Positions 7,261 through 54,846 of a stretch of 54,968 bases of DNA are shown here, piece after piece. Each line of letters begins with the position of its first letter. Position 1 is the first letter of the stretch. Both the position numbers and the translations under genes were made by a program. A model generated the notes under the pieces. The model saw only the letters and a program-made list of their open reading frames with translations. It ran no database searches and had not been told where the DNA came from. Origin of the DNA: a virus (taxonomy: Duplodnaviria; Caudoviricetes); IMG/VR virus record IMGVR_UViG_3300013005_000003, positions 1 to 54,968 of that record. One strand, written 5' to 3'.

Positions 7261-8166
7261 TTAGGAAGCGCCCTGCGAACCCCAGCCTGCGCGGAAGTTC
7301 GAGCAGCCGAACGAGTAACGCTCAATGGCCTTCGCCTTGAGGTTGTCGGTGTCGAAGTCCGTGTAGACGTCGGTTTCCAGCTTTTCACGCTCGTAGTACT
7401 TGAAGCCGTTCGGAGCGTCGGTCAGCAAGAACCAGCCGTTCGTGTCGGTCAGGAACATGTTAACGCGATGACCCTGCGGAACCGCAGAGTTGTTGTAAAT
7501 CGCGTTAATGTCGTTGTTCGCCGTGTCGACGCGGAACTGCGACTGGAGCAGGCGGGTAGCCGTCCACTGCAGTTCAGCCGGAACGATCAGCTTCGTCGGC
7601 TTCGTCATGATGCGGAGGCCCGCAGCATCACGGAAGCGCTGAACGCCAACGATGGCGTCCTGAAGCGAGGTTTCGTTCAGGTCGGCTTGGACCGAGAAGG
7701 TGTTCGCGACCGTACCGTTGTCGATGGGGTGAGCCGTCGAGAACAGCGGCTGGCCATCACCAATCGGGAAGTTCGACGAGAAGCCGTTGTTCAGAACGGA
7801 CGCGCCGAGAACTTCCTTGGTCTGTTCCATCGACTGGCGAAGAGCCTTCGCCTGCAGCGGGAACGACGACTGATACAGGTTATCCTTGATAGCCTGACGG
7901 GTGATGATGAAGCCGATGCTGGTGTAGCGGTTCACGTAGTTCGTGACGAACCGCTGACCCATTTCACCGTAGGCGGTCGAGGCGCCTTCAGCCTTGATCT
8001 GAGCCAGACCAAGCAGCTTGACTTCGACTTCGATTTCAACGGCCTTATCGGACGTGTGCTTCTCGAAGATTTCCGACCACTGACCCGGATACATGGGATA
8101 GTCGCCAAAAACGGCGGCCAAACCGGGCCGGAGCAGGTCGCGGATTGCGGTAGTGTTAATAGCCAT
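7261..8166 (-). CDS. major capsid protein (HK97 fold, Mu gpT-like family)
   Basis: 301 aa; LLRPGLAAVFG, GDGQPLFSTAHP, KLIVPAEL and FDTDNLKAKAIERYSFG; strongly biased codon use. Confidence 0.9.
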   Translation of the reverse strand: MAINTTAIRDLLRPGLAAVFGDYPMYPGQWSEIFEKHTSDKAVEIEVEVKLLGLAQIKAEGASTAYGEMGQRFVTNYVNRYTSIGFIITRQAIKDNLYQSSFPLQAKALRQSMEQTKEVLGASVLNNGFSSNFPIGDGQPLFSTAHPIDNGTVANTFSVQADLNETSLQDAIVGVQRFRDAAGLRIMTKPTKLIVPAELQWTATRLLQSQFRVDTANNDINAIYNNSAVPQGHRVNMFLTDTNGWFLLTDAPNGFKYYEREKLETDVYTDFDTDNLKAKAIERYSFGCSNFRAGWGSQGAS

Positions 8167-9043: not shown

Positions 9044-9523
9044 TTAGTCCTTGAACGAAGTGACGCGCTCAAACGCCACTCCGGTGCCCTTATCCTCAAA
9101 GCGCGGCAGGTTCGGGTCGTTCTGACCGGTCCATGCCACATCCTGCAGGGTTTCGATGTTTTCCAGATCGCGCTCGCGATTGCGCTCCTCGACGTCGCGG
9201 GTCGGGCATTCACAGAGCATCAGACCACCGCGACGGATAACCATCACTTCGGTGCCTTCATAGCCCGGAAGCGGAGGTGGAACCATCTCCGGGTGACGGC
9301 CAGCGGGAACCGGCTGCCAGCCGCGGATCATGCGGTCGGTCATGTTATCGGGATCCGGCTCGTTTAGAGTCGACTCACGAACCCAAGCGTAGGTCATGCC
9401 CGCCGGGATCTTATCCTTCGGGACATAGAGCTTGGATTGGAAGTGCGTCTCAGGGCGCTTGCGCAACCCAGCTTCACGAGTTTCGGTGGCACGCGTGGTG
9501 CTAATGCGAGAAGAACGAGCCAT
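9044..9523 (-). CDS. conserved head-module protein
   Basis: GMTYAWVRES, GWQPV and RGGLMLC motifs; TAATG coupling. Confidence 0.7.
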   Translation of the reverse strand: MARSSRISTTRATETREAGLRKRPETHFQSKLYVPKDKIPAGMTYAWVRESTLNEPDPDNMTDRMIRGWQPVPAGRHPEMVPPPLPGYEGTEVMVIRRGGLMLCECPTRDVEERNRERDLENIETLQDVAWTGQNDPNLPRFEDKGTGVAFERVTSFKD

Positions 9524-10149
9524 TAGTTTGCTCCCTTTTTAGTTTTCAGGATGTAGATTGCATGATATTTTTCAGCTTCCAAGTCATTCATGCGACTGCC
9601 GTTTGGATTCCGATACGCGCCTGACTGCGCCATCTGGTGCGCCATGCGACGCTCATCAGCGCTCAGACGAATGCTCGTCGACTTCTTCGGAGGCTGCCCC
9701 GGAGCGGTGCGCTGGACGGGTGCAGCATTTGAATCACGGCTCATTGGCGGTGCCCTCTTAGTTGGAGTTGATTGCGCTGCGAACGCGTCGGGAAACTCCC
9801 GGCGCATATGGCGGTCGATCTCCGTGAAGTAGTCGAGGCTGCCAATTTCGTCATCGCGACCCTCAGCGCGGAAGCGGCGCTCTACGCGGCGTGCGTAGAG
9901 GGTGGCCTCTTCGTGCATCTCAGGATCGAAATCCTCGGACTTGGGCTGGAACCACGTATTCTTCTGGATCCAGCTTGCCGTGCGAGGCTCAAGCGTAACC
10001 TGCTGCTGCGATGGCTGAGGCGCCGCTGGCTCAACAGGGCGAGACGCCTTGTTCTGCTGCTCACGCTCCCAGTTCGTGACCGCTTCGAGGTCATTCATCG
10101 TCTTGTTGAACTGATACTGAAGATCGTCAATCTTCTCGTTGTCCATCAT
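9523..10149 (-). CDS. scaffolding-like protein, C-terminal part
   Basis: WIQKNTWF, DYFTEIDRHMRREFP and IRLSADERRMA; appears to continue 10160-10552 in another frame. Confidence 0.65.
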   Translation of the reverse strand: MMDNEKIDDLQYQFNKTMNDLEAVTNWEREQQNKASRPVEPAAPQPSQQQVTLEPRTASWIQKNTWFQPKSEDFDPEMHEEATLYARRVERRFRAEGRDDEIGSLDYFTEIDRHMRREFPDAFAAQSTPTKRAPPMSRDSNAAPVQRTAPGQPPKKSTSIRLSADERRMAHQMAQSGAYRNPNGSRMNDLEAEKYHAIYILKTKKGAN

Positions 10150-10159
10150 GGAACGAGCT

Positions 10160-10552
10160 TCAGAGCTTCTGCTTCAGGTCCATCGCAGTGACGCTCAGGT
10201 TGTTCCTGTAATGCGTCATCATCGCCTGCTCAGACTGCTCGCGCAGCTGCGACTCCTTCTGCAGACGAGCCTCCAGTGCCTGAGCGCGCTGCTCTGCCTC
10301 AGCCGCCTTACGGGCCAATTCAGAGATACGCTTCTCAGGCGAGCGACGGCGCTTGGGAGCTTCTTCCTCTTCAGGCTCTTCCTGTTCGGCTACCTCTTCA
10401 GGCGCCTCAGGCTGTTCCTCTTCGGGCTCTTCCTGCTGCTCGTAGTCCTCAAGGCTCTCGCCAAGATCCTCTTCCGTAATCTCGATATCGACGTCCTCGG
10501 TCGGACCGTCGTCGGTATACGGAAGCTCTTGATTTTCTGGATCAATAGACAT
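10160..10552 (-). CDS. scaffolding-like protein, N-terminal part
   Basis: very acidic N-terminus, then KRISELARK coiled coil; start after a GAGGAG SD. Confidence 0.65.
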   Translation of the reverse strand: MSIDPENQELPYTDDGPTEDVDIEITEEDLGESLEDYEQQEEPEEEQPEAPEEVAEQEEPEEEEAPKRRRSPEKRISELARKAAEAEQRAQALEARLQKESQLREQSEQAMMTHYRNNLSVTAMDLKQKL

Positions 10553-10562
10553 GCTTAGCTCC

Positions 10563-11024
10563 TCAGAAGTTTCCAGCAAACTTACCTGACATCACATCTT
10601 CCGGCCCGCTGATCACGGCCATCACACGGTCGTCGGGGAGCAGAGCCATCGCAACGCCGCGATAGGAAACCATCGTCGACTCGTAGCGCGGAATCAGGAT
10701 CCAATCGCCGACCTTGCACCAAGGCCCGGAACGTTCGAACTTTTCGCCCTGATAGGCTTCGGGACCAACGGCGCACACCAGCGCGGACACGGAGGAATAC
10801 TTGTCCTCGGCGCGCACGGTATCCGGCAGATACAGCGTGACTTCCGTCCCGTCTTCCTGCGTAATCGTCTTAAGCTCTTCAGGACGCACGTAAATTTTTA
10901 CGGCCACGAGGTAGCCCGCTGGCTGCATATCGAACGAACGACCCGTGATGGCCGTGAATTCTTCGTCGATCAACTCCTTAGCCAGAGCCTCTTCGTGCGG
11001 CTCGATCTTGCTCATACTCATCAA
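10563..11024 (-). CDS. groES: GroES/Cpn10-like co-chaperonin
   Basis: QPAGYLVAVK, LYLPD, VCAVGPEAY, WCKVGDWIL and LLPDDRVMAVI. Confidence 0.85.
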   Translation of the reverse strand: MMSMSKIEPHEEALAKELIDEEFTAITGRSFDMQPAGYLVAVKIYVRPEELKTITQEDGTEVTLYLPDTVRAEDKYSSVSALVCAVGPEAYQGEKFERSGPWCKVGDWILIPRYESTMVSYRGVAMALLPDDRVMAVISGPEDVMSGKFAGNF

Positions 11025-11302
11025 TACATACTCCCTTTTCTGGTATCCGGTTTTTTATCGTCGTCTGGCTGCAACATACGCTTGTACTCGTCGTTGATGA
11101 CGCTAATCGCAGCCGTGTAGGCGCGCACCAACGCATTACCCTCCAGAACCTGAAGGGCAATCTCTTCTGCCGTCAGCGCAGGGATGTGCTTCTCCCCGAA
11201 GCTCGACGGCCTAAAACGGACATTAAGACTATATTCGGTGGCGCGGTCGCGCAGTTCGCCTATGCGCTCAATCGCGCGGCGCCCGAGTTCCTCGGCTGAC
11301 AT
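11021..11302 (-). CDS. hypothetical protein
   Basis: ATGA-coupled; GGAGAG SD. Confidence 0.65.
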   Translation of the reverse strand: MSAEELGRRAIERIGELRDRATEYSLNVRFRPSSFGEKHIPALTAEEIALQVLEGNALVRAYTAAISVINDEYKRMLQPDDDKKPDTRKGSMY

Positions 11303-11450
11303 TCACACTCTCCGGTAGTTTTTTGTAACTCTTTGTTGCAGCAGTGAATTCTTTGCCCACTTTCTGCGAAATTCCAACCTTCTTAGCGAAGGCCGGGTTA
11401 TGCGCGGCTGCACTCATCAAGCGATACTGACGCTTTGATCTTGCAGGCAC
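11268..11450 (-). CDS. small basic protein
   Basis: MPARSKRQYRLMSAAAHNPAFAKKVGISQKVGKEF, a type common in phage head modules. Confidence 0.7.
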   Translation of the reverse strand: MPARSKRQYRLMSAAAHNPAFAKKVGISQKVGKEFTAATKSYKKLPESVNVSRGTRAPRD

Positions 11451-11466: not shown

Positions 11467-13008
11467 TTATTTGCCGCGCATCTTGTTCATGACGTCGATG
11501 ATGTTGCCCTCAGGCGTCATCATGCCCTTGCGGACCTTCGCAGCGCCGCCCTGAGCCTTCTTGATCGGCGCCTGACCCTTGCGCGTCTTACCAGCGCCGC
11601 CAGCTGCGTAGCCCATCGGAGAGCCGCCACCCATGTAACCCATCGGGTCACCGCCCATAGCCATAGCACGCGTCACCTTCGACGCTTCCATGTCCTTCGA
11701 GCCAGCAGCCATCGCGCCGCCATTCATCTTCTTGGCCGGCTTCATCGGCTTACCAATGGCGATCATGACAGCCAGACTGTTCTTCGGCTTGGCTTCCTTG
11801 ACCTTGCCGCCCTTCTTGTAGCCCGGGTTCATCGTCATATCGACAAACTGAGATACCAAATCGGGATTGGCCTTGCGGCCAGCCTCAAGGGATCTCTTCT
11901 TGCGCTCCTGTTCCGCCCTATAGCCAGACATCTTGCGCACATTTTCAGCTTCAGCACGAACCGCCTCGCGGGCTTGCTCCATGTTCATTGGAGATCCGAA
12001 CAAACCTCGGTCTTTGGCCATTAGCTTTTTAGCTTCAGCGTCAAGATTGAAGCCGGTGTTGAGGTTGCGAATAACCGAAGACATGGGTGAGCCCGTGTTA
12101 ACCGGCTTGTTCGCAGGGGCGGCAGGCGGATTGCCACGAGTCGGGGCGGCAGCAGCAGGCGCATTCCCGCGCGTGGCAGGCGCCGGAGCAGCAGCTGGAG
12201 CGGCAGCGCGAGTCGGAGCCGGAGCAGCCGCGCGAGTCGGAGCAGCCTTCGACGTTTCACCCGCCATCTTGGTGTTGTAGGTGTTACCCCGCCAAGTGAA
12301 GACGCCATTCGGGCCCTGATCGCGGCGCGCTTCAGCAAAGGCTTCCTTGAACGACTTGCCCTTCGCCGCTTCGGAAGTTTCCTTGGCGCGCACAGTGTTC
12401 AGGTTGCGGGCTTCCGCCACCCTGTTCTCAAGATTCGGTAGCGGGGCACGGGGCCGGGACATTTCCTCCAGACCCTTCATGTCGAGCTCAACGGGCTTAA
12501 CCTTGCCGCCCTTTCTCATGCCGCCCATCTCGGTGGCCAGCTTGCGTGCGGTATCCGACGACGTCTGAACGCCGCCCTTAGCGAAACCCTTAACGCCGCG
12601 CCCCTTGAGGACATCGGCCCGAGTGACCTTACCATCACCGGTAAGATCGGGCATCTTACCGCCCTCAGCCATCCTCATCTTGCGCATCTCAGCGCCTTCT
12701 TCGCGCGCCATGCGGTTGCCCGACTTCACGGACTCTGCAGGCGACGGCATCGGACGCTTCTTCTTCTCCATCATCTCCATGAACCGCATCTCATCGGCTT
12801 CTTCACGCGCCATGCGGTTCCCAGAAGCTGCGCTCTCAGCAGGCGTCGGCATCTTCTTCACCGGACCGCCAACCTTATAGGTCGGGATCGGGCGAGCGTT
12901 CGCGCGCTGCTGCAGCGCCTTCGCACCGTTCGGCTGGTTCGGCATGGGCTCAGCAATCGCCGGGCCGAAAATCGCACGAGCCTTGGCCCGCATATCAGTC
13001 GTCTTCAT
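11467..13008 (-). CDS. basic Met/Lys-rich modular protein with ten xxxGG motifs
   Basis: 513 aa, directly after portal; internal duplications and DLTGDGKV loop. Confidence 0.8.
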   Translation of the reverse strand: MKTTDMRAKARAIFGPAIAEPMPNQPNGAKALQQRANARPIPTYKVGGPVKKMPTPAESAASGNRMAREEADEMRFMEMMEKKKRPMPSPAESVKSGNRMAREEGAEMRKMRMAEGGKMPDLTGDGKVTRADVLKGRGVKGFAKGGVQTSSDTARKLATEMGGMRKGGKVKPVELDMKGLEEMSRPRAPLPNLENRVAEARNLNTVRAKETSEAAKGKSFKEAFAEARRDQGPNGVFTWRGNTYNTKMAGETSKAAPTRAAAPAPTRAAAPAAAPAPATRGNAPAAAAPTRGNPPAAPANKPVNTGSPMSSVIRNLNTGFNLDAEAKKLMAKDRGLFGSPMNMEQAREAVRAEAENVRKMSGYRAEQERKKRSLEAGRKANPDLVSQFVDMTMNPGYKKGGKVKEAKPKNSLAVMIAIGKPMKPAKKMNGGAMAAGSKDMEASKVTRAMAMGGDPMGYMGGGSPMGYAAGGAGKTRKGQAPIKKAQGGAAKVRKGMMTPEGNIIDVMNKMRGK

Positions 13009-15368
13009 TGAAAACCTCCAAGGTTCCGCAGGGCCTCCGACTGCAGCTTCATTGCCGCAATCTTCTCTCTCGATGCGCGATTCGCCGCGTCAGTCTGAGC
13101 TTCCATCTGAGCCTTCGCAAGCTCCACCTGAGCATCACGCTCATTATCCGCCTGTTTGATCTGCAGCTTCTGCATCTCAACCTGCGCCATCTGATCGACC
13201 TCAGGCTGCGGCTTATACATCGGCGCCAGCTGCTGCATAGCCTGCGCAACCATGACCGCCAGCTGGTTCTCAAGCTCCGGAGGCATCGGCATGCCCGGAG
13301 GCGGCAGCGGCTGACCAATGATCTGCTCAACCTGCTGACGCATCTTCAGCGCCAAGTGCTCGTTAATGTGCGCCTGCAGAATCGGATTATCCTGCGCAAT
13401 CGGCGCGTGTGCCGCGATGTGCGCGTCGTGATCCTGATACGCACCCGCCACCAGCGGCATGCCCACAATCGCGTTCTGGTTCTCCGTCAGCGGATCCAAC
13501 GGACGCGGCTTCTGACGCTCCGGCGCCAGAATCAATTCAATCTTCTCAGGCGCAACGCCCATCTCGACGTACATCTGCCGATACGCTTCCCGCAGATTGT
13601 GCTGATCCGGCTGCTGCGTCGCAAACCGCAGCAACGCCTCCGCCCGCATCATCCGCTGGGCCGACGACGAAATGTTCGGATCCGACACCGGGATCACGTC
13701 GATGTTATTCGCGAAATCCTCGCGCATAATCGCCGCCATGCCGCCCCGAACCGGGAACGGATACGGCTCATCCGGCAGATACTTCCCGAACAGATCCGCA
13801 ATCAGCTTCAGTTCGCGGCTAAACGCCCTGTGGCAGCGCTTCAGCGTCGCCGACTGCAGACGGGTCGCCGCCTCCATCAACGCCACTGTCGTGCCTACAG
13901 GCGCATCCTGACGCCCCTCGCCGACCGCAATCTCCGTCGTGTTCGCCAGATTCCGGGCGGCTTCGTAGGTTTCCTTCAGCAGCGCCAGCGATACCTGTGA
14001 CGGCTCCTTATACGGCATCGTCATGATCGCGTTCTGGATCGGCAAGCCGCCGGTATCGATCTCACGGAACTCCGTCGGACCAATCCCAATGTTATTGTCC
14101 TCCAGCCGCATGCCCTTCACGCGCAAGCCGCCCGGGAAGTTATTCAGCGTGCCCGCATCAATCAGCTGACGGCGGATCGACGTCGCCGTCTTCGCCGAAT
14201 TCCCCAGCAAGTGCGCATAACCCAGACCGTAAAACCCCACCCCCGGCATGAACTTATAGTGCGTGAACGGGTTCTTCCGCTGAAACGTCGGATCCCCCTC
14301 GTCGTAGTTCCGATAAACCGACAGAACCTTCCGGGTCCCCTCTTCAATCGTCACGACATACGGCAGCGGGATGCCATCCTCGTTCTCATACCCCACAAGG
14401 TTCAGATCCGCGTACACTTCGTAGATCCGGTACTCCTCAGTGCCCTCAGCACCCGGCTCCACGCCCTGAACGCCGTCCACTTCCGCCTGAATCGGCGTCT
14501 GCGAGCTATCGTCCGCCTGCGGATCACCCAGATCGATGTCCCGATACACGCCCGCCAGCTGCGCCAACCGGAAATTCCGGCGCGTCATCGGCGTGATGTG
14601 GCAGAACCGCGGCGACGTCGCCAAATCCGTCGTGCCATACGACGCGATGAAGTTATCCGGCAGCACGAAACGGCTCACCGGACGCCCCAGAAGCCGATCC
14701 TGATACGTCTTCTTGAACGTCGAACCCACCAGCGGCAGCCAAAACAGCATCTGGTCGAATTCTTCGTAGAATTCCGGCGCCAATTCCGTCAGGTACAGGT
14801 TCATAAACTGCTGCACCCGGGACGCCTGCGCCTCCAGCTGCTCGTTCGCGACCCCAATCACCTGCGTTTTCACCGGTCCAGCCGCCGGCATCAACTCACC
14901 AGCGGCCACAGCCTGCCAGCGCACCACAGCCTCAGCCATCAGCGGGTCATAGACGCCGCACGCACCCTTAAACGGCATCGTGCGGTCCTCAATCTTCAGA
15001 CCCATCAGCTTGATGCCCTCAGACATCGTCGCTTCCCAGTCCCCACGCGACTGCTTGTCTTCCTCGACACCGCTCAGCAACGTCTCGCCGAGCGTGTTCA
15101 TGTCCATATCGTCCATGTACAACGCCAGATTCGCGTCAAACGGCGCATCTTCCAGCCGCTCGACCTCCGGCTCGAAATCAATTTCGACCCCGCCGTCGTC
15201 CAGTTCCGTGAACTCCGCGCCGTCAACCATCGCCGGGCCGTCGTCGTCGATCTCAATATCGGCGGCATCCAACGGCAAATCCACATCGACGCCGCCAATT
15301 CCCTCGAACGCAGGGCGGAGCGTGTCAGCGAGCGATGTCGGTCTGCGTGCCATAGTCCACCTTACCAA
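13005..15368 (-). CDS. portal protein
   Basis: 787 aa after TerL; GSTFKK, GFYGLG, RQLIDAGTLNN, APVGTTVAL and VSDPN; Gln-rich coiled C-terminus. Confidence 0.9.
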   Translation of the reverse strand: MVRWTMARRPTSLADTLRPAFEGIGGVDVDLPLDAADIEIDDDGPAMVDGAEFTELDDGGVEIDFEPEVERLEDAPFDANLALYMDDMDMNTLGETLLSGVEEDKQSRGDWEATMSEGIKLMGLKIEDRTMPFKGACGVYDPLMAEAVVRWQAVAAGELMPAAGPVKTQVIGVANEQLEAQASRVQQFMNLYLTELAPEFYEEFDQMLFWLPLVGSTFKKTYQDRLLGRPVSRFVLPDNFIASYGTTDLATSPRFCHITPMTRRNFRLAQLAGVYRDIDLGDPQADDSSQTPIQAEVDGVQGVEPGAEGTEEYRIYEVYADLNLVGYENEDGIPLPYVVTIEEGTRKVLSVYRNYDEGDPTFQRKNPFTHYKFMPGVGFYGLGYAHLLGNSAKTATSIRRQLIDAGTLNNFPGGLRVKGMRLEDNNIGIGPTEFREIDTGGLPIQNAIMTMPYKEPSQVSLALLKETYEAARNLANTTEIAVGEGRQDAPVGTTVALMEAATRLQSATLKRCHRAFSRELKLIADLFGKYLPDEPYPFPVRGGMAAIMREDFANNIDVIPVSDPNISSSAQRMMRAEALLRFATQQPDQHNLREAYRQMYVEMGVAPEKIELILAPERQKPRPLDPLTENQNAIVGMPLVAGAYQDHDAHIAAHAPIAQDNPILQAHINEHLALKMRQQVEQIIGQPLPPPGMPMPPELENQLAVMVAQAMQQLAPMYKPQPEVDQMAQVEMQKLQIKQADNERDAQVELAKAQMEAQTDAANRASREKIAAMKLQSEALRNLGGFQ

Positions 15369-33915: not shown

Positions 33916-33941
33916 GAGAGGCGACCTTAGCGGGTCGCCTC
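33916..33941. terminator. hairpin at the convergence of the two arms
   Basis: AGAGGCGACC-TTAGCG-GGTCGCCTCT, overlapping the stop of the giant minus-strand gene. Confidence 0.6.
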
Positions 33942-36900
33942 TTCTACCTGATTGTAGATCCGGTTGAAGCGCACGAACTCCGCATCGGTGCGCTCCCGAA
34001 GAGCTTCAAGGCGCTCAGCCTTCACACCCTCATCGATATCCAGATTCCGAATGCGCTTGCGCTCTTCGTTCAGTTTACGAACCGCAGAGCGGGTAGCGGT
34101 CAAGGCCGACTGGACACGCGGATTGGTTTCCGCCGGGAACTTCTCGATCAGCGCACGCCTTTCAAGACCCGTCAGATCCTTCATCTGCTGGTTCACGACG
34201 CGCGCCCGCTCTTCGCGTTCGTAATACTCACCCACGTTGCGCCCCTTACCCGGCTGCCCAACAAGGCGGCGGACCACAGGAGCGGCCACGGCATCACCCT
34301 CTTCACCCGTCCGATAGAGTGACTTGGCCAGATTGGTCACGCCACCGAAGGCAAACTCTGTGAGGTATTCGAAGCTCTCAGCAGGGGCATTCAGGTTGCC
34401 CTTCAGCTTGCCCTCTCCGCCGCTGATGTCGTTCAGGAACTGAGACAGTTCCTTGTAACCCTCAGGCGTATTGAACCGGGCGACAGAGGCGTAGGACTGA
34501 CCCTTGTCGAACGGCTCATTGTAGATCGGCTTGCCCATGAAGTTCTCGTTGAGCATGAGTTCAACGAACGGCTTGCCCATCGTCGGCGTTGCCGCGCGGG
34601 CAATCGAACTGGGGATGTTGCCGGCACTGAACTGCACTGGCGAGAAGTTGCCAAGGCCGGCAGTTGCGATGTCCAGACCGACAGCGCCGAGATCGTCACC
34701 GCGACGGGCGGCATCCATCGTCCGGGTTGCCAGATACGGGAAGAAGCCAAAGCCGTAGGGCATCGGGATCTTGGTATAGGTCTTACCGTCCAGCGGGTTC
34801 ATGATGATGAGGTTGCGCTCTTTCTCGTAGTCCGGGATCTTATCCCAGAAGAGCTTGCCGTCATCGTCTTCGTCGGACAGCGCCGCGTTCGCAGCTGCCA
34901 ACGTGGCAGCCGTGGTCATCATGCCGAGCAGCGCCGCCTGCGTGGTGGACAGCTTGCCGGTCTTCAACGGGTTGTTCGACAGCGCCCGCGCGGTGCGGAC
35001 GCTACCCTGAATGCCGGCATTGAAGAAGGCGTACAGAGCGTTCAGCAGAGCGCCAGCCTCACCCCGACGGTTGAAGTCCACGGTCGCCTCGCGCGAGATC
35101 ATAGCCGCCTGCTCGCGGGTCATGCCGATTTCGAGCGCCGCCCTGTAAGCGGCGAAGCGGACACTGTTTTCGAAGGTGGCGTTGGTGCTTTCGAGGGCAC
35201 CGACCATCGCGCGGAAGCCCTTGCCGGTCGGATTCCACACAGCTTCGATAGCCTGCTTGGCGCTGCGGGCGTCCTTCAAATCCTTCAGGCTGTCATTGAC
35301 CGTCTTCAGATCCTTCTGGATCCGAGCCGCGGCCTCTTGCGGCGTCTCGCGCTGCACCCACGACACCGATCCACCGTCGAGTTTGAACTGCTCGTACAGT
35401 TCGCGCAGCGCGGGATCTCCACCCTCACGGCCATACTCGAAGGCGGCGACACTACGGAATGCCTTGCCGTCCTTAATCTTATCCCTGAACGCCTTCAGCA
35501 GACCGGGCGCCTCAGCACCAAGGTTCAGCGCCGCGGACTGCAGATCGCGGAAGACGTTCGGCACGAAGAAGTCCGGGTTCGCCGTCGTGAACGAGCGTGA
35601 CAGCATGCGCGTCAGGTTGCTCGAAATCTGCAGGAGCGAGTTCATCTGCTGCGGGTTCAGGTTCTTCGCAGCCTTCGCCAACAGGGGGTCATCGATGCGC
35701 AGGTAGAACGTGTCGCCGCCGCGCTTCACCACCATGAAGTTCGGGTCGAACGGCGACGGGCGCTGGATGTCGCCGTTCCGATTGCGCGGCGGGTTCCGAT
35801 AGCTGAACACCTTCCACGACTCAGACGGGTTATCGATGAAGAACGTCATCAGCTTCTGGCCAACGCGGTTGCGCTCGCCGCGAACGATGGACGTGCCCAC
35901 ATCGGAGACAAACGTGCCAAGCGGAGAGAAGCCCAGACTGGTGCGACCGCGCGTATCGTACCACTCGCGGACGCTGACACCGAAGCCGCTGCCGCCGTAG
36001 CCCATCACGTCCTCGAAGTCCTCAGCGGGCTCAGTCAGGTTCTCGTCAATGATGGATCCCTTCATCGGGACGTAGTCAGGCTCTTCGCGCAGCAGCTGCT
36101 CGCCGATCTCGCGGGACACGAGGCCGCGCTGGATGTTATTCTCCATCCGCTCCTTGTTGGCACGGTTGAAGATCTCGCCGATGCGCTCAAGGGCCGGGAA
36201 GTAATCCTGACTTCGGTAGCCGTTCATTATTCGGTCGGCTTCCTGATCCGTCATGCCGGAACCGGATTCAGGAATCTTGCCGTCAGCTGCGGCCTTTGCA
36301 ATCGCCGCCTGAACGTCGGCGTCCGCGTCAATGATGGCTGTTTGGATTTCCGCTTCGGTAGCGCCATCAGCCTCCATCTCGCTGATGATTTTATTGTACA
36401 TCTTGGTGCGGATCTCGTTCTCCGCCTTGGCCTTCAGGCGCGCGTTACGAGCCCGCGCCGCACGGGCGTAGAGATAGGCGTCAACTGTTTCCAGACTGAG
36501 CCCAGCCTCCTTCATGATCTTTTCAATAGGCTGGAAGTAGTCCCGGTTGAACTTCGCCATCAGTTCACCGGCACGGCTATCGAACTTGCGGGCAGCCTCG
36601 TAGAAACCCTCGATGCCAGCGCGCAGCTGGCCAAGGTTTTGCACCACGCGCAGCCGCTCGAAGCGGTCGATGATCTTGCGAACCCAGCCTTCGACGCGCG
36701 TCTCTTTGGTCGGCGTGATGGGAGGCGGCGGCGACGGGGCAGGCTGCTGCGGCGGAGGCTGCTGCGGAGGAGGTGGCGGCGGGGGCTGCTGCGGAGGAGG
36801 CGGGGGTGATGGCGGCGTGGGCGAAGGGGGTGATGACGGAATCCCCCCAAACTCAACTGCAGACGCCACAACGCCAGCGGTCACATCAGCAATCCCCGCC

Positions 36901-39490: not shown

Positions 39491-40930
39491 TTAAAACTTA
39501 ATGGCTGACCACCCTGCGCCACCGGTCGGAGCAGCTATCGCCGTGCGTGTCGAGGCGCCCCTTCCCTGACCCGGGGCAGGAGCAGCAGGGGTGCCATCCG
39601 GTAGAAGCATCGGGCCAGCGCCGCCCGGGGGACGCCCAAACGTCTTCTGAAAAGCAAGACGCATGGCCTCCCTGCGGTTGAGGGCCGCCTTGTATTTTGC
39701 GAATTTAGCCGCGTCCATGCCGGCTTTAACACCCTTAGCCTGTTCGTAATCTGCCTTATACTCTTCGAGGGCCTCTCGCATTTTTTCGTCAGCCGCGATG
39801 AAATTTTGCTCGGCGGTGTACTGCTGATTGGCAGTCATTTCGCGCGCCCGATCAGCAGGCCCACGCCGGTTTTCGTCGGCTTGTGATCGTGTCAAATCAA
39901 GACCAGCCTGCGCCTCTGCCTCCGCATATTTTGCGTTGACCCCAGCCGTCTGGGCCTGCGCCAAGGCGGTATCAAGAACCGGCTTACCCAGAGCAATATT
40001 TCGAACTAAGCCTTCGCTCGCAGTGGCAAGTTCCAATGTGCCCTTGTCATAGTCACGACCGGACCGGATGATGTCTCTGGCCTCCTTCTGGGCCTGCTTT
40101 AGTGCATCATAATTCCTGAGCACCAGATCGTCGCGGGCCTCACCTACACGCTCAATGCCTGACAATCTCTGCTGACGAGACTGTTCATACTTCTCAGTCC
40201 CAGCTTGAAGACCACGGCTCAGCGCTTCGACGAGGCTCTCACCGTCACGACCCTGAGCCAACGCGGCGCCGCCAGCAATCAGCGCCTCCCACGGGGAGCG
40301 GGCCCTCGCTTCCTCCATCAATTCTTCGCGGCGGGCTAATCGCGCTTCTTGATTCGTCAAAGCGGCCCGCACTTCCTCTGGGATCTGGGCATTCTCTGTG
40401 GCCAGCGCCTCGCCTTCCAGCGCGCCCGCGCGGTCGGTCAGCATTTGCAAACGAGTCTGTAAACGAGTCCGGTCGAGGATGTTGTCTTTGTTTGCTGGCA
40501 TGGCAGCCAGCGCGGTTTGAACTTCCGCGATCTGTTGCTGCGTGCTTGCCAGCGCCTGCCGATAGCTCGACTGAGGAGCCGCCCTCTCAGGGGCTGCACG
40601 CTGCGGGGCGGCGGCCACGGGCAGTTCTTGCACCTGCGGCTGAGGGGCCTGCGGTGGCGCCATCGGCGGAGCCTGCGGCGGCGCCACCGGAACCGTTGGC
40701 TTAGGAGCAACCAGCTGTACGCCGGGTTGCATTGGAGCAGGCGTGGCAGGCGTCACAGTGCGCGGCGCCGCCATCAGTGCTGCGCTAATCGCCGTACCGG
40801 GCGCACCCGCACCCTCTGCTTTTGCAATGATCTGCTGCACAAGATCTTCTCTGGTCAGACCATCATTCTGCCCGGACATGATCAACTGCTCAGCGAGAGC
40901 GCGAGCCTTTCTAATATCCATCCGTGCCAT
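39491..40930 (-). CDS. putative ejection (DNA transfer) protein
   Basis: helical, Ala/Gln-rich; between nozzle and the giant protein. Confidence 0.6.
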   Translation of the reverse strand: MARMDIRKARALAEQLIMSGQNDGLTREDLVQQIIAKAEGAGAPGTAISAALMAAPRTVTPATPAPMQPGVQLVAPKPTVPVAPPQAPPMAPPQAPQPQVQELPVAAAPQRAAPERAAPQSSYRQALASTQQQIAEVQTALAAMPANKDNILDRTRLQTRLQMLTDRAGALEGEALATENAQIPEEVRAALTNQEARLARREELMEEARARSPWEALIAGGAALAQGRDGESLVEALSRGLQAGTEKYEQSRQQRLSGIERVGEARDDLVLRNYDALKQAQKEARDIIRSGRDYDKGTLELATASEGLVRNIALGKPVLDTALAQAQTAGVNAKYAEAEAQAGLDLTRSQADENRRGPADRAREMTANQQYTAEQNFIAADEKMREALEEYKADYEQAKGVKAGMDAAKFAKYKAALNRREAMRLAFQKTFGRPPGGAGPMLLPDGTPAAPAPGQGRGASTRTAIAAPTGGAGWSAIKF

Positions 40931-41877
40931 CAGCGTACATCCTTCAGCCAGCCAAGCCCGTGCATCGGGCTCTTAATGTTACGCTTACCGTCCTTGACGG
41001 GGCTCTCGACCTTGCCGCCTTTCTTGAATCCACCAAACCCACCGAATCTACCGAACGCCCCCAAGGCTTGGCTTGCTAAGCCCAAAATGGCGGCAGTGTT
41101 ATTCCTACCCGGCTCGTCGGTAATCCGCGTCCCAGTCCCCTGCGCCGAAGGCGTGCCGCCAATGCCTGCCAACTGCTGCAACTGCGTGAGCGGGTAATCA
41201 CGCTGACGCTCAAAATCGCTATACGCCAGATTCGCAGACGTCTGACCCAGTTCCTGACGCTTCGCGCCGATAGCCTCAAGGCCGGTCAATTCACGCAAGC
41301 GCTGCTCTTGAGCGCTTTGTCCCAGCTGCGAATATTGTTGAGCCCCCGTCAGCGCGCGGGCGGCTTCATTGCCATACAGATCAGCGCCCGCCCCATATGC
41401 GTCGGCCAGCGCTGCTGTCTGCTTGTCCAACGCCTGACTCTGCGTGTCGCGAACCGCACGGCGCATGAACTCAGCACTGCGCGAGCCGCCGAACGTGCCG
41501 CTGCCCACGAAGGTGCGATTAAGCTGAGGCAGAATATTCTCAGACAGGTTGCGCGCTGCCGTCGATCCAATCCCAGAAATGACGTTCTGGATGTACGGAT
41601 TCATGTATCGCTGAGCCACGCCGGGATCCGTGAACGATCCCGTGCCCCGATTGAGCGCCTGCGTGGCAGAGTTCACGTAGGGCTGATACGAGCCCATGCC
41701 CTGCTTAAACAGGTCGAACGCCTGCTGCTGCTCCTGCTGGAACGGCGCAATGCGGGCAACGTCATACCGCTGATACGGCTGCGAAGTGGCGGCTTGCGCC
41801 TTGGTCAGAAGGTTCGTGGCGTAATCAGTATACCACTGCGGCAAGATAGTCTGGGTCTGGGTAGTCTGCGTAGCCAT
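40930..41877 (-). CDS. putative ejection (DNA transfer) protein
   Basis: YMNPYIQNV, GTFGGSR and DFERQRDYP; C-terminal FKKGGKV. Confidence 0.7.
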   Translation of the reverse strand: MATQTTQTQTILPQWYTDYATNLLTKAQAATSQPYQRYDVARIAPFQQEQQQAFDLFKQGMGSYQPYVNSATQALNRGTGSFTDPGVAQRYMNPYIQNVISGIGSTAARNLSENILPQLNRTFVGSGTFGGSRSAEFMRRAVRDTQSQALDKQTAALADAYGAGADLYGNEAARALTGAQQYSQLGQSAQEQRLRELTGLEAIGAKRQELGQTSANLAYSDFERQRDYPLTQLQQLAGIGGTPSAQGTGTRITDEPGRNNTAAILGLASQALGAFGRFGGFGGFKKGGKVESPVKDGKRNIKSPMHGLGWLKDVR

Positions 41878-44750
41878 TACACTGCACCTCCGACAGCCTT
41901 CAGCATATCTTCAATTCCACGCTGCGGCTTCGCAATCTTTTTCACGTCTTTACGTCCCGCCTGCTGACGCACCATCTTCCGCATACGGTCAAGGCGGCGG
42001 ACGCCTTCAGCGTTCGAACCATCGCCAAGATCGGAGACATCCTGCGCACTCCAGACATACTCGCCGTCCGAAAGCCAAGCGGGGATCTTGTCCTCCTGAC
42101 CGCTGCCGATGCCCTTAACCTCTCCCGGGCCTATGTGACCGCCACCCTTACGATACTCAATAAGGTGCCTTACCATATCGTCGTCGACTTCACCACCTTC
42201 GGCCATCGCCGGGCCGTCGGTTATAGTGCGGGTTCCGAAGAACTGACCTTGATCGTTAATGCCGTAGTTCTCATACCCCGGATTCGCCGCGCGAACCTGA
42301 TCGAGCGTCACCGGAGCACCCGCCGTGGTCGTGGTTACGTTGCGGTAACCGTAGAACCTACCGTCGGGACCCTGCTCGATACGAGTAAAGCCCGGATTGG
42401 CAGCCTGATAATCAGCAAGCGTAGGCGCGCGCGTCGATGCCGGCGTTGTACGCGTGCCAACATACTGCCCAGCCGCGTTCTGCGTAATATTCTGATAGGT
42501 GGGATTCGCCGCGCGGATCTGTTCAAGCGTCATGCCCGGCGCCCCGGGAACGTCAACTGTCCGCGACCCGACGTATTGCCCAGCCGCGTTCCGCTCAATG
42601 CTCTCAAAGCCCGGGTTGAAAAGCCCGTAGTCTTCAACCGTCGGGTTAAAGGTGCCTCCAGCAGTTACACGCAAACCAGTCGGAGCCGGTCCGCTCGCCG
42701 TGTAACCGGGAATAGGTTCGCCAAACCACCGTCCATCAGCGGCCTGACGAATATTGGTATACCCCGGGAAGGCCGCGCTAACTTCAGCGGCGGTCGCGGC
42801 GGGGCCCGGTGTACCAGCCGTCGTCCTGCCAGTCGTTGTAGTGCCGGTTGTTCCCGTCGTTGTGGTGCCGGTTGTTCCCGTCGTTGTGGTGCCGGTTGTT
42901 CCCGTCCCGCCAATGCCGGTCACGGTGCCAGTCGTAGCGGGCGCGTTGCGGAAGAAATCAAACTCGCCTTCGCGCTGACCATAGGTGAACGGATCAAAGG
43001 TTGCAGGATTCCGAATCCGACCACCGCCGATTCCTCCCACGGGAAGACCGGGGCCGGCATCAATAGTACCGCCACCGCCACCGCCGCCACCAACAGCCTC
43101 AGCGAGCAAACCAATCAGCGGCGTGAGGCCACCAATAGTTTTTAGCGCGGACAGGACTTTCTGCTTCGTAGTCGGGCCCGCTTGGCTGTCGCCCAAGATT
43201 TGCTGAACAGTTATGGCTGAGAGCACTTCAGGGGGCAGCAATTCGAACGGCATGCGCTGCTCATTGGTGCTCGTATTCGAGGGCGTTTGAACCGGCAGAA
43301 CAACGGTTTCGGTGCGGCTTGTAGGAGTATTCGTGCTTGGAGTCTGTATCGGCACCACAGGCGTCGTCGTGTCGCCGCCACCGGTATCCGTGTTTGAACC
43401 CACAGGCGGCACAGGCGGTGTTGTCGTGTCGCCACCCTGCTGAGCGGCAGTGTTTGAACCCACAGGCGGCACAGGCGGTGTTGTCGTGTCGCCACCCTGC
43501 TGAGCGGCAGTGTTTGAACCCACAGGCGGCACAGGCGGTGTTGTCGTGTCACCACCACCGGTATCAGTGTTTACAGTAGACCCAGCGAGCGCTCCCCCAA
43601 TGCCGGCGATAGTACTGGCGCCCGCTCCCGCACCTGCGTTCGCCAAGGTTGAGGCTGCGCTACCCGCAACGTTACCTGCGGCGCCAGCTTTCAAAGACAC
43701 TGCAAAGTCTAAGGCCGCCTGACTTCCGGGGATTAGCCCGGTTTCGATGATGTTCCCGGCGGCGTCGCTAAGCTGCCCAGCATTTGTAAGCAAATACCCC
43801 TCAGGGTATCCGTTCATAAATGCGTTATACGCAGCGCGACCGCCAAAGTCTTCGGGCTTCAGGCTGTTAATATAATCTACAGATCTCTGATTTGCATTGG
43901 CCTGATTAACAACATCCCGACCAATATCGCCTACGCCCGCGGACGCGAGGTTTCCAACAATGCTACCAAGAGTTGTATTCAAGCCGGCGCCCGCTATCCG
44001 GGGACCAAGCACCGTTATAAGAGCATCATCAAGGGCGCTAGAAGCAACGTTGCTACCAATACCGGCGCCAACGTTGGCAGCACCCGGTGCGATATTAGAC
44101 GCGGTCGCTCCGAGCTTCTGACCTAAGACATCGGTGGAAGCGCCTACATCCGGCATGATACCCTTGAACGCGCCGGCAGTCAGACCCGATATGCCCGCAT
44201 TGATCAAAGATTGTTCGAGATTTCTGCCAACCGCTAAGTTGCCAGCAAGCGAGCCAGCCGCAGTGCCCAGACCGGCACCAAGGGCGGAGGCGCTGCCCGC
44301 AATCTGCCCGGCCTGAATTAACGGGCCCAACGTGCCGGCGCTTATGACGGAAAGCGCAAGCGGTATGAGGGTCTCAAGGGCCCCCATGTTGTTTTCTTTG
44401 TTGGCGTAAATGTCGTTAAACGCCGTGATCGCCTCACCTGATCGCGTCGCGGCTTGCACTTCCTGCTGCAGACGCACGTCAACCGCGGCACCGCCCTGAG
44501 CGGAAATCTTATTCGCGGCATCTACTAGCGCGGCAACCTCTGCCGGCGAAGACGCCGTTCCAATTACATTGCCGCCAACCACAAGCCTGTAGTTCGTTCC
44601 CGGCAGCGGCTGAAAATCAAGATTTTCGTATTCCGTGTTGCCCTTCAGGGACAGGATTGGCGCGGTCTTCGCATAGTTATACAGCGGATCAAACTCGCTG
44701 AGCGTGCCAGCCTGAAGCGAGCCAAGTCCTCCTGCACCTGCAATCGCCAT
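41877..44750 (-). CDS. putative ejection protein with repeats and C-terminal GSGQEDKIPAWLSDGEYV module
   Basis: 957 aa; glycine zippers, Thr/Pro tandem repeats, MAEGGEV. Confidence 0.65.
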   Translation of the reverse strand: MAIAGAGGLGSLQAGTLSEFDPLYNYAKTAPILSLKGNTEYENLDFQPLPGTNYRLVVGGNVIGTASSPAEVAALVDAANKISAQGGAAVDVRLQQEVQAATRSGEAITAFNDIYANKENNMGALETLIPLALSVISAGTLGPLIQAGQIAGSASALGAGLGTAAGSLAGNLAVGRNLEQSLINAGISGLTAGAFKGIMPDVGASTDVLGQKLGATASNIAPGAANVGAGIGSNVASSALDDALITVLGPRIAGAGLNTTLGSIVGNLASAGVGDIGRDVVNQANANQRSVDYINSLKPEDFGGRAAYNAFMNGYPEGYLLTNAGQLSDAAGNIIETGLIPGSQAALDFAVSLKAGAAGNVAGSAASTLANAGAGAGASTIAGIGGALAGSTVNTDTGGGDTTTPPVPPVGSNTAAQQGGDTTTPPVPPVGSNTAAQQGGDTTTPPVPPVGSNTDTGGGDTTTPVVPIQTPSTNTPTSRTETVVLPVQTPSNTSTNEQRMPFELLPPEVLSAITVQQILGDSQAGPTTKQKVLSALKTIGGLTPLIGLLAEAVGGGGGGGGTIDAGPGLPVGGIGGGRIRNPATFDPFTYGQREGEFDFFRNAPATTGTVTGIGGTGTTGTTTTGTTGTTTTGTTGTTTTGRTTAGTPGPAATAAEVSAAFPGYTNIRQAADGRWFGEPIPGYTASGPAPTGLRVTAGGTFNPTVEDYGLFNPGFESIERNAAGQYVGSRTVDVPGAPGMTLEQIRAANPTYQNITQNAAGQYVGTRTTPASTRAPTLADYQAANPGFTRIEQGPDGRFYGYRNVTTTTAGAPVTLDQVRAANPGYENYGINDQGQFFGTRTITDGPAMAEGGEVDDDMVRHLIEYRKGGGHIGPGEVKGIGSGQEDKIPAWLSDGEYVWSAQDVSDLGDGSNAEGVRRLDRMRKMVRQQAGRKDVKKIAKPQRGIEDMLKAVGGAV
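42832..42907. repeat. 24-bp tandem repeat (about 3 copies, encodes GTTGTTTT)
   Basis: GTCGTTGTGGTGCCGGTTGTTCCC units. Confidence 0.85.
43390..43550. repeat. 60-bp tandem repeat (nearly 3 copies, encodes GGDTTTPPVPPVGSNTAAQQ)
   Basis: identical 60-nt period visible in consecutive sequence lines. Confidence 0.95.
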
Positions 44751-54229: not shown

Positions 54230-54846
54230 GACACTTTCTCCACCCTCTGCGCATCTAGAGCTACCTTGGGTTTAATCCTAGCATCTCTTTGAGCTTGCGT
54301 CCAAGGCCTTCCCTTCAGAGCTTTTGACAGTTTTTGCCTAGCTTCTTCAGAGTTTACTCTACCTTTTTGAGCTTCCGACATTTTGCAACGAGTTTCTTCG
54401 CTACGCTTAGATCCGAGACGCTTGGCAACGCCCTTAGCAATGTGCTCCGGAGACTGCTTGACACCCCTTCTGCTATTGAAGTGGGCGCGCATTTTTTCAG
54501 TAACGATTCCGCGCTTCCGCCTGCCGGCTTCTATATGGACTTCAATCGGGACAGGTACACCATCACCTCCCCGAGTCATATTATAACCATTGGGAAGCAT
54601 GGAGTTCAGTTCGGCTATAAATTTAATTTCCTCAGCGCAGGCTTGAGCGTGGGTTTCGCATTCAACTAAAAGCTCAACTGAAAACGAGTCGTTTCCGTAG
54701 GCCCTTATCGCGTCGTACAGCGCGGTCTGTTTGCGCCAGCGCGCATTAAGAAGGTGCGCTTTAAAGCGCTCTTCGGCGGTCTTTCCTGTGTAGCCAATAT
54801 AAATCTTGCCATTCACAGAGCAGGAAATTTTGTACACCCTGTACAT
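54226..54846 (-). mobile_element. free-standing GIY-YIG homing endonuclease with NUMOD3-like repeats
   Basis: VYKI..NGKIYIGYT, ERF, GYNMTRGGDG and SEETRCKMSEAQKG; lower GC than flanks. Confidence 0.9.

Follow-up and report, generated by a model that had tools for sequence, protein, structure and literature searches.

What a long, strongly basic protein punctuated by Gly-Gly motifs and encoded directly behind the portal gene might do for a tailed phage is the question raised by the virus record IMGVR_UViG_3300013005_000003, whose whole 54,968 nucleotides are the window analysed here. The gene concerned, hereafter the GG gene encoding the GG protein, is an open reading frame (ORF) of 513 codons plus stop at 11467..13008 with an ATG start, lying directly after the portal gene. 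An earlier note made from the letters alone had read its product as a polyprotein-like basic protein, in which the motifs could act either as cleavage sites or as a head-targeting tag for internal proteins; the ORF it named is real and lies on the minus strand, and the head-targeting tag is the better half of that idea, with the motif as a candidate tag. The reading tentatively favoured here, to which somewhat less than an even chance is given, is that of a head-packaged and co-ejected polycation with multivalent motif stickers, conserved ends that would address the assembly machinery and an exchanged middle that would be cargo. Portal position, charge, low predicted order, motif enrichment, independent modules, shared tags, hypervariability and a copy of the motif in an ejection protein all speak for it.

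The motif itself was not overestimated. All ten pentapeptides named in the earlier note are present, together with TEMGG and an overlapping GYMGG, and its count of eight [F/Y/M]xxGG sites holds, as seven of the 11 distinct Gly-Gly sites plus one overlapping register. Measured against a shuffled background, a comparison which that note had proposed, the motif is enriched, with eight copies observed versus 0.68 +/- 0.81 under full shuffling (0/20,000 shuffles reached eight) and versus a mean of 1.33 and a maximum of 7 when glycines were kept fixed (0/50,000 reached eight). Gly-Gly dipeptides as such are mildly enriched (12 versus 6.2 +/- 2.2, p = 0.013), and F, Y or M stands at position -3 in 7/11 distinct sites against a background of 0.109 (binomial P = 4e-5). 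Non-randomness is accompanied by conservation throughout the family, as 119 homologues among the matches listed carry 3-11 copies of [FYM]xxGG each; in these, L, I, V or W is hardly ever found at the first motif position and their inclusion barely changes the counts. Among 1,072 unique Gly-Gly contexts of the family, F/Y/M occupies position -3 in 47% versus 10% in the background and K, A and V are favoured after Gly-Gly, which gives the consensus (K/G)-[Y.21 / M.18 / F.08 / K.21]-[A/K]-K-G-G-[K/A]-[V/A]-K. The same preference is found in ten small proteins from distant phages, at 17/26 Gly-Gly sites. Helix C-capping of the Schellman type (Phi-x-x-G-G) was rejected as a general explanation, for it fits some sites only: the helix at residues 90-114 ends before EGG, and YKVGG follows a Pro-rich coil.

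These motifs are embedded in a polypeptide of unusual composition, with an isoelectric point of 10.4, a net charge of +46.6 (96 K+R versus 49 D+E), a grand average of hydropathy of -0.75, 41 Met residues and no Cys. AlphaFold2 modelling with a 54-sequence alignment (A1) returned a mean predicted local distance difference test score (pLDDT) of 50.7 and a predicted template modelling score of 0.18, and every Gly-Gly motif falls within a segment of pLDDT < 50. The only confidently folded part is the SFKEAFAEARR..FTWRGNTYNT mini-domain (pLDDT ~83), predicted as a helix at 220-231 and strands at 236-239 and 242-245, while helices at 310-318, 322-332, 343-380 and 382-393 are predicted in a variable cassette further downstream. 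The peptide modules listed in the earlier note are all there, namely the duplicated MPxPAES..SGNRMAREE at residues 53-71 and 86-104, the Ca-loop-like peptide DLTGDGKVTRAD at 121-132, the mini-domain at 219-246 and an Ala/Pro linker at ~254-300. The alignment shows a conserved N-terminus (1-52), a conserved C-terminus (~394-513) and a mosaic middle. Pfam and PHROG scans assigned no family to the whole protein or to five segments of it (Pfam thresholds E <= 0.01 for the whole and E <= 1 for segments, yielding chance-level matches only), and Dockerin_1 on the DLTGDGKVTRAD loop stayed below threshold at E = 0.23.

A word-seeded search found 318 homologues at E <= 0.001 (proteins of 282-898 amino acids, aa), and an exhaustive search of cluster representatives found 530 matches at E <= 0.001, 102 of them at E <= 1e-10, with lengths of 49-722 aa and many matching a single module. 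These relatives, which number hundreds in metagenomes, are unnamed in every source consulted. The whole protein gave 0 tblastn matches in 50,697 phage records, and its segments matched HTVC027P only (E = 5e-6), apart from weak mini-domain matches; none of 19 small relatives could be placed in an annotated PHROG family, the Protein Atlas returned unnamed viral clusters only (scores <= 0.86), and a scan of genome contigs found four contigs of metagenome-assembled genomes, from which no host was inferred. In the literature, six motif strings retrieved no phage paper among the matches listed, DUF6321, DUF5872 and DUF3008 led to unrelated content only, and the accessible text of the HTVC023P and HTVC027P papers does not discuss these genes.

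A further feature of this family is the independence of its modules, in line with the modular view taken in the earlier note, since several of them occur as separate small genes in other phages and dozens of relatives of 50-200 aa are other combinations of the same blocks. Cassette KMPDLTGDGKVTRADVLKGRGVKGFAKGG is a stand-alone 88-aa gene, gp44, in Pelagibacter phage HTVC027P (PDLTGDG..FKKGG; tblastn E = 5e-6), whose gp47 carries YKVGG, MRGG and YKKGGSVKK, and MKSGGSV and YAKGGLV are found in a pair of small proteins encoded behind the portal gene of phage DSL-LC04. Likewise, the MPxPAES cassette occurs in stand-alone small proteins such as P0224 and P0225, the VQTSSDTARKLATEMGGMRKGG module recurs in many small relatives, the mini-domain matches alone in many otherwise unrelated proteins, and stand-alone versions of the C-terminal region include P0123 and P0162. 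Small relatives with the motif also often end in Cys (..KGKIC, ..KMSGC, ..RKGMC, ..TRIC), as observed in P0203, P0220, P0229 and P0252 and at loci L001, L049, L052 and L055-L057.

The C-terminus of the protein behaves as a shared tag. Two GG-type ORFs are present in 18 of the 79 related viral loci examined, and at all 13 two-gene loci inspected for this feature the second gene, though unrelated, ends in ..AAGGAAKVRKGMMxPEGxIxxAMNKxRGK, the same tag as that of the 513-aa protein, with the N-terminal module confined to the first post-portal gene. Such pairs were ruled out as split genes, being tandem paralogues each with its own start and stop. In a second lineage, encoded downstream of the major capsid protein (MCP) gene, several adjacent small proteins share a different ending, PhixKGG-SVxxRADGxAxKGKTKGKxV.

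Judged by identity to the window over the same loci for all head genes, the GG gene is the fastest-changing gene of the head module, with a median of 45.8% (range 27-82%) for its product versus 97.7% for the MCP, 89.7% for TerL, 88% for the GroES-like protein, 87% for a 159-aa protein, 84% for the portal and ~65% for the scaffold. Even where the portal is 98-99% identical to that of the window, phages carry different alleles of whole cassettes, the MPxPAES cassette included, and either have or lack the PDLTGDG cassette. As a separate observation, the MCP (7261-8166, minus strand) is 97-100% identical in 39 of the 45 loci compared and 43.6-50% identical in the other six, a tight conservation unusual for a diverse metagenomic set in which portals across 74 loci span 29.4%-99.5% identity.

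Rapid exchange could have produced the motif rather than used it. According to this explanation, the motif is a functionless remnant of duplication and unequal recombination among Lys/Gly-rich cassettes, and its DNA is microhomology for exchange. Consistent with it, the YKKGG copy (AAG GGC GGC AAG GTC AAG) and the MRKGGKVK copy share 17 of 18 bases, one relative (L024) resembles a deletion joining exactly these two KKGGKVK copies, and PMGY-xGG is an obvious tandem duplication. However, most copies diverge in DNA beyond the GGC GGC core, and the preference for F/Y/M over L/I/V/W persists where the surrounding sequence is non-homologous and where lineages share <=30% identity. Moreover, in the 54-sequence alignment Gly-Gly lies within two residues before a gap in 11 of 152 distinct gaps (>=8 columns) versus 7.3% in the background (p = 0.56), and 14 of 151 inserts end in Gly-Gly, so the motif is unlikely to be the usual recombination joint; gap placement is noisy in this 1,215-column alignment of a mosaic low-complexity protein. 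The notion that cassette edges lie at Gly-Gly thus failed the global gap test, though a few clear cases exist. A mere by-product of recombination is on balance very improbable.

The genomic position of the gene is as constant as its content is variable. Its ATG overlaps the portal TGA by four nucleotides (ATGA), and its ribosome-binding site is embedded in the portal gene, which also explains the Gly-Gly pair at the portal C-terminus (..GGFQ), rejected as a motif copy. A portal ORF was present in 74 of the 79 loci and the GG gene abuts it in 70 of these, with the four-nucleotide overlap in 63 of the 70; in four loci a GG-type gene lies ~2 kb downstream of the MCP gene, away from the portal. 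The order conserved over the 79 loci is TerL, portal, GG gene, 60-aa basic protein, 93-aa protein, GroES-like protein, scaffold, 159-aa protein, 216-aa protein and MCP, and in the window TerL, portal, GroES-like protein, scaffold and MCP are on the same strand as the GG gene.

Such an arrangement would also suit an assembly factor, that is, a portal-associated or scaffold-like chaperone that nucleates or sizes the procapsid and leaves before or during packaging, without being carried into the host. Translational coupling to the portal, conserved termini suited to binding conserved head proteins, and neighbours comprising a GroES-like protein and a scaffold whose very acidic N-terminal part could pair with a polycation are all compatible with such a role. 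Yet extreme cassette turnover and lengths ranging over 150-632 aa, set against 87-98% identity for the MCP, the GroES-like protein and the 159-aa protein, are ill-suited to an essential function; the gene is missing from several relatives that share the head module, and the four loci with a related gene ~2 kb downstream of the MCP gene do not fit either. This role is therefore regarded as quite unlikely.

Cleavage, the other half of the earlier proposal, would make the protein a precursor that is cut after Gly-Gly by a phage or host protease, freeing small basic peptides like the separate proteins of its relatives. Core proteins of adenovirus and African swine fever virus (ASFV) mature at Gly-Gly sites, the modules of the GG protein are separate genes elsewhere, the linkers that hold its motifs between predicted helices are exposed and of low confidence, and some cassette insertions begin right after GGK and end in a PhixKGG of their own. 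Even so, no sign of cleavage was obtained. No peptidase was found with Pfam and/or PHROGs in the 62 ORFs of the complete genome, where a very divergent protease or one of the host is still possible, and the failure of the earlier note to recognise a prohead protease is thus borne out; the podovirus types indicated by the head module, those whose portal and adaptor are SU10-like, are not known to rely on a prohead protease, which also counts against cleavage. The conserved 159-aa head-module protein (9044-9523) was considered as a hidden protease, but found no support, since its AlphaFold2 model (pLDDT 66) gave 0 Foldseek matches in the PDB at E <= 0.001, the best rows (E 0.4-4) being unrelated folds.

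The register of the motif points in the same direction. Gly-Gly-specific proteases such as adenain, ASFV pS273R, the Ulp/PLpro type (LxGG) and the C39 leader peptidases favour a hydrophobic residue at P4, with (M/I/L)xGG-x as the adenain/pS273R consensus, whereas the conserved F/Y/M at -3 of the GG protein would be P5 if cutting occurred after Gly-Gly (7/11 sites) and M/I/L is found at P4 in one of 11 sites only, KMNGG. Furthermore, in stand-alone relatives the motif lies mid-protein or at the extreme N-terminus (MKKGGK.. in P0196 and P0211) and not at module ends, so that cutting there would be pointless; gap boundaries, as stated, are not enriched next to Gly-Gly. Assignment to the adenain/pS273R-type polyproteins is not supported, as no cognate cysteine protease was detected and the conserved hydrophobic residue is not at P4; nor is assignment to double-glycine leader peptides, because the motifs are internal and multi-copy and the genome has no C39 or ABC transporter gene. 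Taken together, processing after Gly-Gly is considered unlikely.

The earlier note had further reported the motif near the C-termini of two ejection proteins. All three sites exist, of which FKKGGKV is above chance and the other two, MAEGG and YRKGG of a 957-aa internal protein, are within it. Simple [FYM]xxGG counts are unenriched in both proteins (1 versus 0.41 expected in the ejection protein and 2 versus 1.43 in the 957-aa protein), and discrimination came from an 11-residue profile derived from the family and applied to 136 Gly-Gly sites in 49 other proteins of this phage and to 300 Gly-fixed null proteomes. With this profile, GGFKKGGKVES of the ejection protein scored 13.3 bits, the best site outside the GG protein and beyond all 300 null proteomes (maximum 11.6), while MAEGG at 6.0 bits lies inside the null range (95th percentile 7.9) and YRKGG at -1.4 is no match. 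Close homologues of the ejection protein keep its tail with a drifting register (FKKEGG, FKEGG, FKDGG, LKEGG), some distant ones end in YAKGG-type sites, and YRKGG varies among homologues to YRKSGG, YRKGCG and YHKNGG. The ..HLY[RK]GG.. end of the 216-aa protein was rejected as a motif copy since it varies to RAG/RSG. The C-terminus of the 957-aa protein (41880-42150, minus strand) has a domain of its own, GPGxVKGIGSGQEDKIPAWLSDGEYVWSAQDV..LGDGS..RLDxMR, which is also found in many unrelated viral contigs, there ending internal proteins that lie upstream of ejection-protein homologues, and inside several 'tape measure' PHROGs; it is often preceded by Phi-x-x-GG.

How a polycation of this kind might function can be outlined as follows. 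A late, portal-coupled, strongly basic and probably disordered protein built from short exchangeable cassettes would be loaded into the procapsid, would stay with the packaged DNA and would exit the head with it at infection; we infer its presence in the virion, its ejection, a binding partner and the lack of cleavage. The element (K/G)-[Y/M/F]-[A/K]-K-G-G-[K/A]-[V/A]-K would then equip a flexible chain with multivalent stickers or docking points, and not with cleavage sites, each offering an aromatic or Met side chain beside lysines and a flexible Gly-Gly to a repeated partner, which could be DNA, the acidic scaffold or the capsid interior. The N-terminal module and the shared C-terminal basic tag would contact the conserved assembly machinery, and the variable middle cassettes would be cargo swapped rapidly between near-identical phages. 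Co-folding of the MCP (alignment A3) with residues 440-513 (alignment A1), run without controls, scored 0.00 versus a mark of 0.32 and is neutral on binding.

Several observations weigh against a packaged and ejected polycation. The gene is absent between portal and GroES in Planktothrix phage Pag-Yong1, Caulobacter phage RW and Roseobacter phage CRP-901, and is therefore accessory. Virion proteomics of this phage or its cultured relatives was not found in the literature searched. Portal-coupled expression alone does not suggest a copy number that would neutralise 55 kb of DNA, low pLDDT falls short of proof of disorder, and rapid change may merely reflect weak constraint on a low-complexity protein. 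The link to the ejection protein depends on a single significant site, and the last 60 residues of 57 non-redundant homologues of that protein (69 complete ORFs minus 12 with identical last 80 residues) contain 12 motifs versus 6.8 expected, a marginal excess (odds ratio 1.8, p = 0.07).

The positions of all these elements are collected in Table 1.

Table 1. Elements of the GG gene and motif-bearing or adjoining features in the window
Feature	Position	Strand	Support or remark
Whole ORF, polycationic mosaic protein, low-confidence, probably disordered	11467..13008	-	composition and AlphaFold2
N-terminal module, residues 1-52, ends YKVGGPVKK	12853..13008	-	near-invariant in 54-sequence alignment A1
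YKVGG, residues 44-48	12865..12879	-	profile 12.3 bits
MPxPAES..SGNRM..EMRKM module, two copies, residues 53-117, ends MAEGG	12658..12852	-	sequence
MAEGG, residues 113-117	12658..12672	-	profile 11.8 bits
Optional cassette KMPDLTGDGKVTRADVLKGRGVKGFAKGG, residues 118-146, dockerin/EF-hand-like loop	12571..12657	-	present or absent among near-identical phages
FAKGG, residues 142-146	12571..12585	-	profile 4.4 bits
VQTSSDTARKLATEMGGMRKGG module, residues 147-168	12505..12570	-	among most conserved family blocks; G168 invariant
MRKGG, residues 164-168	12505..12519	-	profile 13.8 bits
SFKEAFAEARR..FTWRGNTYNT mini-domain, residues 219-246, helix and beta-hairpin	12271..12354	-	AlphaFold2
Ala/Pro-rich linker, residues 254-300, length varies	12109..12249	-	pLDDT 34-39
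Variable helical cassette, residues 301-393	11830..12108	-	at least three alleles among near-identical phages
Conserved C-terminal region, residues 394-513: YKKGGKVKE, GLAVMIAIG, KKMNGG, PMGY repeats, YAAGGAGKTRKG	11470..11829	-	alignment
YKKGG, residues 397-401	11806..11820	-	profile 17.3 bits, best in 513-aa protein
MAMGG, YMGGG, YAAGG, residues 449-471, in PMGY tandem repeat	11596..11664	-	sequence
C-terminal basic tag, residues 478-513, ..IKKAQGGAAKVRKGMMTPEGNIIDVMNKMRGK	11470..11577	-	recurs on second tandem genes
GGAGG ribosome-binding site	13015..13019	-	inside portal gene end; six bases upstream of ATG; minus-strand context GGAGGTTTTCAATGAAG
Portal gene, upstream neighbour, translationally coupled	13005..15368	-	PF23899 SU10_portal E = 8e-10; phrog_1216 E = 2e-37
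60-aa basic protein, next to GG gene	11268..11450	-	phrog_16759
FKKGG, residues 284-288 of 315, tail of DNA-ejection protein homologue (40930-41877, phrog_4287)	41014..41028	-	13.3 bits
MAEGG (849-853) and YRKGG (866-870), 957-aa internal protein	42141..42206	-	just before conserved GPG..IPAWLSDGEYV domain

The window is a complete virus genome with 123-bp direct terminal repeats and 58.8% G+C, of podovirus type, encoding an SU10-like portal and adaptor, a T4-type TerL, the GroES-like protein, the scaffold, an HK97-like MCP (Mu-like_gpT / Phage_capsid_4), ejection proteins, and tail fibres with an assembly chaperone. By portal, its nearest named relatives (26-43% identity) are DSL-LC04, Pelagibacter phages HTVC027P and HTVC023P, Roseobacter phages CRP-901 and CRP-902, Planktothrix phage Pag-Yong1 and Caulobacter phages. 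The gene for the 60-aa basic protein follows the GG gene in most related loci and in the MCP-downstream lineage is fused to a tail with one or two motifs; the N-terminal 50 residues of this protein also head two PHROGs named 'virion structural protein'. By tblastn it was matched in 124 phage records, almost exclusively of jumbo phages (phiKZ PHIKZ165.1, 201phi2-1, PA7, EL and large E. coli/Serratia phages), some of them lying under 'virion structural protein' annotations.

A 1849-aa protein (33927-39476, minus strand) contains LPD38 at residues 1544-1725, and its residues 150-329 match the N-terminal region 261-439 of solved N4-type virion RNA polymerase chains (E = 1e-7), the polymerase part not being detected. 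This is probably a packaged polyvalent protein, and because an LPD38 protein with an N4 virion-RNA-polymerase-like N-terminal domain is encoded, the phage would package large proteins. The scaffold gene (9523-10579, minus strand) is interrupted near 10160, where the loss of 2 bp (CTCT--GAAG versus CTCTCCGAAG) leaves ORFs of 139 aa and 208 aa, while the comparator locus L011, whose portal, GroES-like protein, scaffold parts and MCP are 99-100% identical to those of the window, has a single 343-aa ORF and other related loci with a complete scaffold gene have single ORFs of ~308-373 aa; the break is either an assembly error or a mark of a defective genome. A GIY-YIG/NUMOD3 homing endonuclease gene (54226-54846, minus strand) adjoins the tail-fibre genes.

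Among known systems, the GG protein would by analogy work most like the internal proteins of phage T4 or gp6.7 and gp7.3 of T7. The T4 proteins IPI-IPIII, encoded at the variable ip locus, are small, basic, non-essential and fast-varying, and are loaded in the prohead, kept and injected with the DNA; a single N-terminal capsid-targeting peptide directs their loading and is then cut off at LxE-type sites by gp21, the prohead protease. In contrast, the GG phage has no detectable protease, its recurring element is internal and multi-copy and its shared tag C-terminal, and there is no sequence similarity between the two. T7 gp6.7 and gp7.3, which are ejected into the cell, are likewise small and charged, contain Gly-Gly and have genes adjacent to that of the portal: VEFGG and a terminal SAFGGKK are found in gp6.7, and AGG/GGG runs in gp7.3. 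Unlike the motif described here, gp6.7 has its hydrophobic residue directly before Gly-Gly (xFGG), a register other than that of Phi-x-x-GG, no homology was detected, and T7 has two small genes in place of a 513-aa concatenate. As an aside, gp73 of Roseobacter phage CRP-901 (L003 5168-6748), a second post-portal gene, starts with MCFGGGGGGGG.., resembling MCF.. of T7 gp6.7, and is acidic and Asp/Asn-rich in the rest, thus differing from the 513-aa protein.

In adenovirus (adenain) and ASFV (pS273R), the basic DNA-associated core proteins with repeated xxGG sites are accompanied by a virus-encoded clan-CE protease, whereas no protease was found in the GG phage and its hydrophobic residue is at P5 rather than P4. 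Encapsulin cargo-loading peptides are short, Gly-rich, located on disordered tails and sometimes repeated, and they dock cargo inside an HK97-fold shell; the GG phage has an HK97-like MCP too, but the consensus differs and docking to the MCP is only putative. With respect to position, the GG protein sits where MuF and SPP1 gp7 sit, immediately downstream of the portal, and MuF-type post-portal proteins are described as head components that deliver variable effectors into the host (PMC5512222). Unlike these, the GG protein lacks the Phage_Mu_F domain in Pfam scans and is predicted to be largely unfolded. In organisation it is like a miniature polyvalent protein, a class that combines many modules per polypeptide, which also occur solo or recombined, is encoded among virion genes and is proposed to be injected (Iyer et al. 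2017; PMC5512222). The GG modules, too, are found solo and re-assorted in the context of a head module, but they are peptides of 20-40 residues and not globular enzyme domains, and no LPD or processing metallopeptidase was found in the protein, LPD38 lying in a different gene (33927-39476). The GG protein lacks the defining sequence features of each family compared, and family and motif are in neither Pfam nor PHROGs.

Physiologically, what a host encounters first of a phage is its internal and injected proteins, which are poorly known beyond T4, T7, P22, N4 and P1. If the GG protein were merely a counter-ion for DNA, it would be a phage 'protamine' of modest interest. A bolder proposal, which seems rather unlikely on present evidence, holds that Phi-x-K-G-G-K-V-K and the basic C-terminal tags form a portable loading and ejection signal, so that every peptide bearing it would enter the procapsid and be injected along with the DNA, and that the post-portal gene is a hypervariable magazine of injected mini-effectors, which near-identical phages would exchange and which would serve anti-defence or the take-over of the host; unrelated lineages would then use one signal, the HTVC023P-like podoviruses considered here included. 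Should the motif or tags be a loading signal, virion cargo could be predicted from genomes by a rule based on sequence, and foreign peptides could be directed into capsids. The family is large (530 representative clusters at E <= 0.001) and shows the greatest variability in a head module that is otherwise very conserved among abundant, uncultured phages of aquatic habitats, and if its cassettes are injected effectors, their turnover would mark an unexplored front of the arms race between phage and host.

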